From the IMG/VR virus record IMGVR_UViG_2561511241_000004, positions 1 to 40,856 of that record: a stretch of 40,856 nt of DNA, one strand, 5' to 3'. This DNA comes from a virus (taxonomy: Duplodnaviria; Heunggongvirae; Uroviricota; Caudoviricetes). Shown in pieces: positions 15,321-15,476 of this stretch. Every line of letters starts with the position of its first letter. The stretch's first letter is position 1. The notes beneath the pieces are model-generated. The model was given only the letters and a program-made list of their open reading frames with translations, was not told where the DNA came from and did no database searches. A program made the position numbers and the translations under genes.

Positions 15321-15397
15321 CCGCCACTAGCTCATCAGGAAAGAACGTCAACCCTTTAAGTTGAGTGTGCGAGGTTCGAGTCCCCGGTGGCGGTCCA
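15321..15397 (+). tRNA. tRNA-like gene with unusual anticodon loop CCUUUAA (C at position 33); identity uncertain
   Basis: Perfect 7-bp acceptor stem, TCAAC/GTTGA anticodon stem, TTCGAGT T-loop, CCA end; mismatches in D- and T-stems. Confidence 0.5.
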
Positions 15398-15399
15398 GT

Positions 15400-15476
15400 G
15401 CCGACTTAGCTCAGTAGGCAGAGCAACTGACTTGTAATCAGTAGGTCACCAGTTCGATTCCGGTAGTCGGGCACCA
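15400..15476 (+). tRNA. tRNA-like gene, anticodon UGU (Thr type), with one extra G in the acceptor 3' strand; possible pseudogene
   Basis: GCTC/GAGC D-stem, ACTGA/TCAGT anticodon stem with loop CUUGUAA, TTCGATT T-loop; 3' strand AGTCGGGC where AGTCGGC would pair perfectly; resembles E. coli thrU. Confidence 0.5.

Follow-up and report, generated by a model that had tools for sequence, protein, structure and literature searches.

A prophage tRNA gene with C33 and a lysine anticodon on an arginine-type body, beside an extra-G copy of thrU, in a four-tRNA cluster of E. coli lambdoid prophages

We analyzed a cluster of four transfer RNA (tRNA) genes in the viral record IMGVR_UViG_2561511241_000004 of IMG/VR, a stretch of 40,856 nt that we refer to in its entirety as the window and that, judged by its gene content, is a lambdoid prophage of E. 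coli type carrying the tRNAs at its late-gene junction. The tightly packed genes occupy positions 15244–15554 of the + strand, with the gene of the Q antiterminator on one side and the lysis genes on the other. A preliminary description, made from the letters of the sequence, had singled out the second and third genes (tRNA2 and tRNA3) as non-canonical and had proposed that they were pseudogenes, sequencing errors or tRNAs of altered specificity. The four genes are as follows.

15244–15319, + strand: tRNA1, anticodon CAU, ileZ-like; called by ARAGORN; Rfam 72.5 bits; PGAP calls its homologues tRNA-Ile
15321–15397, + strand: tRNA2, argN-family body, anticodon UUU; called tRNA-Lys(ttt) by ARAGORN; Rfam 35.6 bits
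15400–15472 with ACCA to 15476, + strand: tRNA3, thrU copy, anticodon UGU; called by ARAGORN; Rfam 60.3 bits
15480–15554, + strand: tRNA4, anticodon UCC (tRNA-Gly); called by ARAGORN; Rfam 64.9 bits; identical to K-12 glyT

The tRNA-Ile of the CAU type reads AUA, its C34 being modified to lysidine. We conclude with high confidence that tRNA2 is a real, widespread, anticodon-shifted gene of the argN family with a fixed C33, that tRNA3 is a captured thrU in the form of a rare allele with an extra G, and that the A-C mismatch in the T stem of tRNA3 is normal for thrU.

The second tRNA gene and its family

From its 5′ end tRNA2 reads CCGCCAC UA GCUC AUCAGGAAA GAAC G UCAAC CCUUUAA GUUGA GUGUG CGAGG UUCGAGU CCCCG GUGGCGG U CCA, starting with a C1-G72 pair and ending with the discriminator U73 and an encoded CCA. 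The anticodon loop CCUUUAA, noticed in the preliminary description for its C in place of the near-invariant U33, was confirmed, with C33 at 15354, the anticodon UUU at 15355–15357 and A37 present. Of the usual combination of U33 with a purine at 37, tRNA2 has only the latter, whereas tRNA3 has U33. U8, A14, G18-G19 and the T-loop motif UUCRA are all present in both genes of the window; U8C or G18A occurs in some other tRNA2 alleles. Both genes form the canonical cloverleaf of Rfam model RF00005, tRNA2 with one D-stem mismatch and tRNA3 with a bulge or mismatch in the acceptor stem. The D-stem mismatch, C11-A24, is private to the tRNA2 of the window: the responsible G24A change (15345) is absent from 77 related loci, and no exact match to it was found in 5426 E. 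coli genomes. An A51-C63 mismatch in the T stem is common to tRNA2 and the argN of Shiga toxin (Stx) phages.

The 35.6 Rfam bits of tRNA2 compare with 60–72 bits for its neighbours and with a gathering threshold of 29; the consensus tRNA2 allele scores 44.4 bits and Stx-phage argN 43.0 bits. Because the consensus allele scores like a bona fide argN, the low score of tRNA2 reflects the body of its family more than C33. A further 9 bits are lost in the window through G24A, and this particular copy may be weakened by its private mismatch. PGAP annotates homologues of tRNA2 as tRNA-Lys. That the loop might instead present a shifted UUA (ochre-reading) anticodon is speculation.

We found tRNA2 to be 83–88% identical to phage tRNA-Arg genes that are located, as it is, behind an ileZ-like tRNA: argN of Stx2 phages (loop CUUCGAA) and the tRNA-Arg(UCU) found in O121 and further prophages (loop CUUCUAA). 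U33C and C35U separate the CCUUUAA loop of tRNA2 from that of the UCU form, and the Arg-type body was kept, including C1-G72, A20, U73 and the argN T-arm. Homology, together with a location behind the ileZ-like tRNA and downstream of Q that matches the Stx-phage and O121-prophage loci, places tRNA2 in the argN family, a group of homologous genes with hundreds of relatives rather than of chance matches. The Arg anticodon (UCG or UCU, with C35) is missing, and we regard tRNA2 as a descendant of this family and not as a tRNA-Arg by anticodon. A diverged copy of the host lysT was ruled out as its source by an identity to lysT, in what we take to be the sequence of that gene, of ~58%, compared with 83–88% to phage tRNA-Arg; with lysT-type tRNAs tRNA2 shares the UUU anticodon, and it lacks their A73 (having U73) and their body.

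Loop alleles were surveyed in 130 copies carrying the T-arm of the family, 129 of them from loci of IMG/VR and E. coli genomes plus the one in the window; one of the 130 could not be classified.

CCTTTAA: anticodon UUU, C33; 93 copies
CTTCTAA: anticodon UCU; 27 copies
CTTCGAA: anticodon UCG; 3 copies
CATATAA: anticodon UAU, A33; 3 copies
CCTGTAA: anticodon UGU, C33; 1 copy
ACTTTAA: anticodon UUU, C33; 1 copy
TCTTTAA: anticodon UUU, C33; 1 copy

All four U-N-U anticodons occur on the one scaffold of tRNA2, and the cloverleaf is conserved in 20 distinct alleles of the family, with 96.2% of cells paired and two-sided compensatory changes at three pairs. In a scan of GTDB species representatives, members of the family turned up only in E. 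coli and Shigella; two matches in Burkholderiales/Betaproteobacteria lay in non-tRNA sequence and were discarded as chance. We found no intermediate between the UCU and the C33-UUU forms, and only two copies that combine UCU with a nucleotide other than U33, both with A33 and both in degraded clusters. The UGU allele belongs to E. coli CE0026a (L004, 392–468; loop CCUGUAA), where PGAP annotates it as tRNA-Thr, so that the operon of this strain holds two ‘Thr’ genes on different scaffolds. The CAUAUAA loop (A33, UAU) is found in three IMG/VR loci (L022, L025 and L124) in a standalone 78-nt relative of argN, which ARAGORN calls tRNA-Ile and which lies below the Rfam gathering score.

The C33-UUU type of gene is present in 797 of 5426 complete E. 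coli genomes (~15%) and its exact consensus allele in 279; among the matches listed, the copies are annotated as tRNA-Lys. The consensus allele also occurs in the genome of an isolated phage, vB_EcoM-606R7. C33 was invariant in the 77 sampled loci, in which C32 varied, and this invariance, together with the presence of the gene in 797 genomes, ruled out sequencing error as the source of C33. No copy with U33 and a UUU, UGU or UAU anticodon on the tRNA2 scaffold was found in IMG/VR, no exact U33 revertant in the complete E. coli genomes and no U33 copy in JGI metagenomes, where six matches proved to be unrelated tRNAs with an anticodon arm alike by chance. Stem polymorphisms in the C33 group are nearly all C-to-U changes that keep G-U pairs, and one of them, C63U, repairs the A51-C63 mismatch. 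In enterohaemorrhagic E. coli (EHEC)-type loci (L010, L013, L024 and similar ones), a C33-UUU copy with a deletion in the D stem sits between ileZ and argO, the slot of argN in Stx phages; PGAP leaves it unannotated, Rfam does not detect it and ARAGORN still calls it tRNA-Lys.

The thrU copy and the setting of the operon

The sequence of tRNA3 is that of a thrU captured from the host: U20C (15419) and one inserted G are its sole differences from the K-12 gene, and the UGU anticodon is shared, in agreement with the thrU-like identity first given to it. The 3′ acceptor strand reads AGUCGGGC-ACCA, with GGG at 15469–15471 in place of the GG of K-12 thrU (AGUCGGC-ACCA), one G beyond what is needed for pairing with GCCGACU; the extra G of the preliminary description is therefore present. 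The A-C opposition in the T stem, which had been counted as a second irregularity, is also present (A52-C62, 15451/15461) but is identical in K-12 thrU, so that it is no anomaly of tRNA3.

The GGG run forces either a bulged G in a 7-bp acceptor stem or a G1-G72 mismatch on a 6-bp stem with a shifted CCA. The two arrangements are isoenergetic (−17.7 and −17.8 kcal/mol); minimum free energy folding of single tRNAs gave no cloverleaf even for bona fide thrU and was used only for this comparison of acceptor registers. The insertion lowers the Rfam score by 13.5 bits, from 73.8 for thrU to 60.3. In the calls of ARAGORN and Rfam the last nucleotide of the gene is C15472, so that the CCA falls out of register; in PGAP annotation the extra-G form remains a tRNA-Thr, of 77 nt. 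In spite of its near-identity to thrU, tRNA3 thus lacks a regular 7-bp acceptor stem with G1-C72, C2-G71 and A73-CCA. G1-C72 and C2-G71 are identity pairs for threonyl-tRNA synthetase, and since the extra G disturbs them, tRNA3 is probably a poor substrate of this enzyme. The copy is probably a hypomorph or a pseudogene, redundant beside the host thrU.

The exact extra-G form was found in 8 of 819 complete E. coli genomes that have the prophage-type thrU-glyT junction, and the remaining matches among the best 60 listed differ from it by one gap. Two backgrounds carry it: that of SC516, CUVET18-1475 and S1-JOR, whose members differ at other sites, and that of ETEC1749, ETEC4090 and the IMG/VR locus L079, with other flanks and a degenerate tRNA2. 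Its occurrence on at least two prophage backgrounds other than that of the window indicates that the extra-G form exists in nature and is inherited. Alleles of tRNA3 one G short (AGUCGC-ACCA) were seen in loci L118, L134 and L136; with alleles one G longer and one G shorter, the short G run appears prone to insertion and deletion alike. In tRNA4, C6U and G66A (15485 and 15545) change together in 15 of 77 loci, a compensatory pair that points to structural constraint on the glyT copy.

The tRNA block is flanked by the following elements.

14354–15049, + strand: antitermination protein Q gene, upstream of the tRNA operon; Pfam Phage_antiter_Q, E = 2.2e-89; annotated ‘bacteriophage antitermination protein Q’ in homologous loci
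15113–15142, + strand: intrinsic-terminator-like G+C-rich hairpin followed by a T run, AAAACCCGCCCACAAGCGGGTTTTTTG, in a tR′-like position between Q and the tRNAs
15206–15234, + strand: candidate σ70-type promoter, TTGCAA-17 nt-TATTAT, from a promoter scan; it ends 9 nt upstream of tRNA1
15822–15852, + strand: strongest terminator-like hairpin 3′ of the tRNA operon, 8 pairs followed by TTTTTTTATTC (T run), from a terminator scan

The terminator scan placed the hairpin at 15113–15142 on the − strand; AAAACCCGCCCACAAGCGGGTTTTTTG is read on the + strand. The hexamers of the candidate promoter and their 17-nt spacing are conserved over at least six divergent spacer sequences in ~100 related loci. 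Because they are kept despite wholly different spacers, the tRNA block is probably served by a promoter of its own, which would follow the terminator next to Q.

Genes for DUF968, RusA and antiterminator Q lie 5′ of the operon; two holins, an M15 endolysin, an HNH protein and the small and large terminase subunits are encoded 3′ of it, and an integrase, DicF, hok/sok and tail genes elsewhere in the window. Rfam matched the DicF small RNA (5105–5157, − strand, 69.9 bits), the sok antitoxin RNA of a hok/sok module (11505–11679, + strand, 111.7 bits) and the IS009 RNA (39569–39767, + strand, 225.2 bits), three RNAs that are typical cargo of Qin/Rac-like lambdoid prophages. An open reading frame (ORF) with an S-adenosylmethionine-dependent methyltransferase domain (39865–40533, − strand) adjoins a tail-fibre assembly gene near the prophage end, and a 561-aa ORF with an Rv2179c-like 3′-5′ exoribonuclease domain (1990–3675, − strand) lies near the integrase.

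Proposed function and competing explanations

The explanation that we favor, and to which as a whole we give a probability of about 0.5, is that the four genes form one operon with its own promoter, a module that lambdoid prophages of E. coli and Shigella would carry in the slot between Q and the lysis genes, and that tRNA2 arose from the phage tRNA-Arg gene argN by a shift of the anticodon (tRNA gene recruitment). That tRNA2 is also expressed and decodes as lysine is, taken by itself, an even bet. Phage accessory tRNAs and tRNA gene recruitment are both known, and tRNA2 is a variant of both. In E. coli, arginyl-tRNA synthetase (ArgRS) identity rests on C35 and A20, and lysyl-tRNA synthetase (LysRS) identity mainly on U34-U35-U36, with A73 secondary. 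Since C35 was lost and a UUU anticodon gained, charging with lysine is chiefly expected, and tRNA2 would most likely serve as an accessory Lys tRNA for AAA and AAG, though probably an inefficient one. Lysine poses no rare-codon problem in E. coli, which fits, without proving, selection for a phage-borne UUU tRNA. The same holds for the fact that UUU was gained independently once more in the operon, where tRNA3 keeps the thrU body and carries G35U and A26G (IMG/VR loci L052, L075, L093, L097 and L110); ARAGORN calls this variant tRNA-Lys, and tRNA2 of the same loci is tRNA-Arg(UCU) or a degenerate haplotype. Such shifts are reported to be rare in Enterobacteriaceae chromosomes (PMC3923123), and this kind of identity switch through the anticodon has experimental support: an Arg(UCU) gene mutated to UGU rescues an E. 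coli thrU deletion according to the account of Saks 1998 given in PMC3923123.

C33 is expected to affect modification of the anticodon loop. In vitro, E. coli initiator tRNA carrying U33C receives no N6-threonylcarbamoyladenosine (t6A) from E. coli TsaBCDE (PMC8887486), and by this precedent tRNA2 would lack t6A37 and its cyclic form, ct6A37. C33 need not abolish function, because yeast tRNA-Leu(GAG), a natural C33 elongator, is functional (PMC13492127).

These differences bear on the action of defence nucleases on tRNA-Lys. PrrC cuts host tRNA-Lys 5′ of U34, directly after nucleotide 33 (PMC3025547), so that C33 would sit immediately 5′ of the scissile bond, and PrrC is reported to need ct6A37 (PMC12409363). 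AriB, the nuclease of the PARIS system, acts on host tRNA-Lys at a U36AAUC|A41 site and depends on U16 (PMC12409363); with U39A cleavage is lost altogether, and with A41C or U16C it is impaired (PMC12409363, PMC11464382). With the same anticodon as the host target, tRNA2 reads U36-A-A-G39-U40-U41 and C16, departing from the AriB target of the host at all three positions. Resistance is predicted because t6A37 is expected to be lost and the AriB site and U16 are missing, and tRNA2 could stay working after defence nucleases destroy the host tRNA-Lys. We nevertheless consider it unlikely that C33 and the foreign anticodon arm evolved as adaptations to nucleases aimed at tRNA-Lys. The fullest form of this idea, also a doubtful one, would make tRNA2 a ‘defence-proof’ lysine tRNA on an arginine scaffold, in which C33 keeps t6A/ct6A37 from being made and changes the nucleotide at the bond cut by PrrC, and the foreign stem and D loop remove the elements recognized by AriB. 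Lambdoid phages would then keep translating AAA and AAG while the host destroys its own tRNA-Lys, and the UGU allele would serve likewise for the second target of AriB, tRNA-Thr(UGU).

Several points weigh against the favored explanation or against an evasive role attached to it. U73 is suboptimal for LysRS, and the retained A20 makes some charging by ArgRS possible; without t6A37 and the U-turn uridine, decoding of AAA and AAG should be weaker. The AriB-resistant tRNA-Lys of T5 keeps U33 and A73, so that C33 is unneeded for escape from AriB, and both U33 and the AriB site persist in the UUU variant on the thrU body, which is at odds with an evasive role. The excess of C-to-U changes in the stems could result from mutational bias. 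More than half of the E. coli copies of tRNA2 seem structurally damaged, as judged from the spread of matches, the damaged haplotypes having a 1-nt D-stem deletion or C4U/U8C/C11U and being unannotated by PGAP and unscored by Rfam; with so many copies damaged, loss of tRNA2 must often be tolerated. Finally, the extra G and G24A in the window could be assembly artefacts.

Neutral decay offers a possible, though less probable, account of both odd genes: tRNA2 would have lost its Arg anticodon and U33 by drift and be non-functional, persisting only as a passenger between useful tRNAs in a block-recombining module, and the extra-G tRNA3 would be a pseudogene. The many damaged and unannotated copies of tRNA2 are what such relics would leave, as are the private D-stem mismatch in the window, the tRNA3 alleles with one G more and one fewer, the A33 copy with UCU in a degraded cluster and the sub-threshold A33/UAU relative. 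Segregating sites in tRNA2 (13 in 77 loci) equal or slightly exceed those in tRNA3 (12/77), compared with 9/76 in tRNA1 and 7/75 in tRNA4, a weak comparison given that the flanks are mosaic and unalignable. Against decay, the dominant allele is an intact cloverleaf, unchanged in 279 genomes, and is present in the isolated phage vB_EcoM-606R7; stem substitutions mostly preserve pairing, and one repairs a mismatch. C33 never reverts even though C-to-U is the commonest change in tRNA2, and UUU was gained twice in the operon.

Errors of sequencing or assembly, with the common alleles as the true sequence, are an improbable source of the two changes specific to the window, the extra G and G24A. The tape-measure gene of the window is split into ORFs in different frames (26518–27975 and 28118–29755), and its region 27721–28488 shows nine insertions of a single base each, and no deletion, when compared with a close relative, CV839-06; at least three of the nine are also insertions relative to the intact tape-measure coding sequence of strain 06-00048. 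Such a pattern resembles local sequencing error more closely than it does natural decay. Given such clustered one-base insertions in the same assembly, the extra G, itself a one-base insertion relative to the closest haplotype, that of CV839-06, is possibly an artefact here, and G24A is, as stated, unique to the window. However, 8 complete genomes that are independent of one another, and also IMG/VR contigs, contain the identical extra-G allele on two other backgrounds, and the tape-measure gene of CV839-06 is also frameshifted, so that decay within the lineage is possible. An error of this kind is inapplicable to C33.

It is very improbable that tRNA2 is something other than an ordinary decoder, either charged by ArgRS through A20, with the loss of U33 dampening decoding enough for Lys-to-Arg mistranslation to be tolerable, or an uncharged decoy for anticodon nucleases: the Arg-type body with A20, the pairing of every non-Arg anticodon on the scaffold (UUU, UGU, UAU) with a non-U33 nucleotide, the precedent of G33 in Candida tRNA-Ser(CAG) (PMC13492127, PMC5041475) and the suggestion of the AriB authors that overexpressed viral tRNAs are possibly inhibitors (PMC12409363) would fit, but the link between non-U33 and non-Arg anticodons reflects only about two independent events, one of them in a sub-threshold tRNA, and a tRNA without the AriB recognition sequence would be a poor decoy for AriB. 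By the identity rules, moreover, ArgRS depends strongly on C35.

Of the options first offered for tRNA2, altered specificity fits best, in the form of an argN-family gene with a shifted anticodon, and sequencing error was excluded for C33 by its invariance in 77 loci. For tRNA3 a degenerate allele or pseudogene fits best, given its 8 occurrences in 819 genomes, and sequencing error is possible in the window in view of the nine tape-measure insertions. The preliminary description was to count as refuted if standard tools called both genes canonical tRNAs; ARAGORN, Rfam and PGAP do call both, so that formally this is the case, but we consider such calls too weak a refutation, because being called leaves C33 and the extra G non-canonical.

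U33 is among the most conserved nucleotides in biology, and the tRNA2 family fixes C33 on a tRNA changed from an Arg to a Lys anticodon, with sporadic Thr and Ile anticodons; ~15% of complete E. coli genomes carry the type, which annotation routinely labels as an ordinary ‘tRNA-Lys’. If functional, these genes would provide a natural system for the contribution of U33 and t6A37 to bacterial decoding and for the evolution of tRNA identity switches, and a test of whether temperate phages, like T5, carry tRNAs shaped against PrrC/PARIS immunity directed at tRNA-Lys and tRNA-Thr. If inert, they mean that annotation pipelines mislabel a common pseudogene. Should the ‘defence-proof’ proposal be true, it would mean that the ‘invariant’ U33 was lost adaptively, and the loss fixed, in a tRNA of a bacterial virus, and that immune evasion drove alloacceptor recruitment in nature. 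The extra-G thrU copy is mainly a caution, being rare, probably impaired and possibly an artefact in the assembly of the window.

Comparison with known systems

Natural tRNAs without U33 are known in yeast tRNA-Leu(GAG) and the initiators of multicellular eukaryotes, which have C33, and in Candida tRNA-Ser(CAG), which has G33 (PMC13492127, PMC8887486, PMC5041475). As in tRNA2, position 33 was replaced and fixed in these cases, and in Candida the anticodon is also mismatched to the body; unlike tRNA2, all these precedents are eukaryotic. To our knowledge, and from a search that was not exhaustive, no bacterial or phage family of elongator type with a fixed C33 has been described.

The tRNA-Lys of T5 is, like tRNA2, a phage-borne UUU tRNA that departs from the host AriB target, with A at position 39 where tRNA2 has G, C at 41 where tRNA2 has U, and C16 in both. 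In T5 the tRNA is of genuine Lys type, having U33 and A73, whereas tRNA2 has an Arg-type body, C33 and U73, and its resistance to AriB is predicted only. The two genes that follow tRNA2 resemble parts of the host thrU-tyrU-glyT-thrT operon, tRNA3 corresponding to thrU with U20C and the extra G, and tRNA4 to glyT; unlike the host operon, the window has no tyrU between these copies, and it has GGG for GG in the 3′ acceptor strand of the thrU copy.

The recruitment of Arg(UCU) to UGU attributed to Saks, as far as the citing account describes it, resembles tRNA2 in that an Arg(UCU)-type body takes another U-N-U anticodon, and the CE0026a allele carries exactly UGU. Unlike that mutant, tRNA2 is natural, prophage-borne, present in hundreds of genomes and shifted to Lys(UUU) together with U33C. 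The argN of Stx lambdoid phages, in an ileZ-argN-argO cluster (for example in Stx2a_WGPS6, AP012539), occupies the same slot after an ileZ-like tRNA and downstream of Q. It shares with tRNA2 the C1-G72 pair, A20, the T-arm GCGAGGUUCGAGUCCCCG with its A51-C63 mismatch, U73, the encoded CCA and an equal Rfam score. It differs in its loop, CUUCGAA or CUUCUAA in place of the CCUUUAA of tRNA2 with its Lys anticodon and C33, and in the gene that comes next, argO in the Stx phages and the copies of thrU and glyT in the window.

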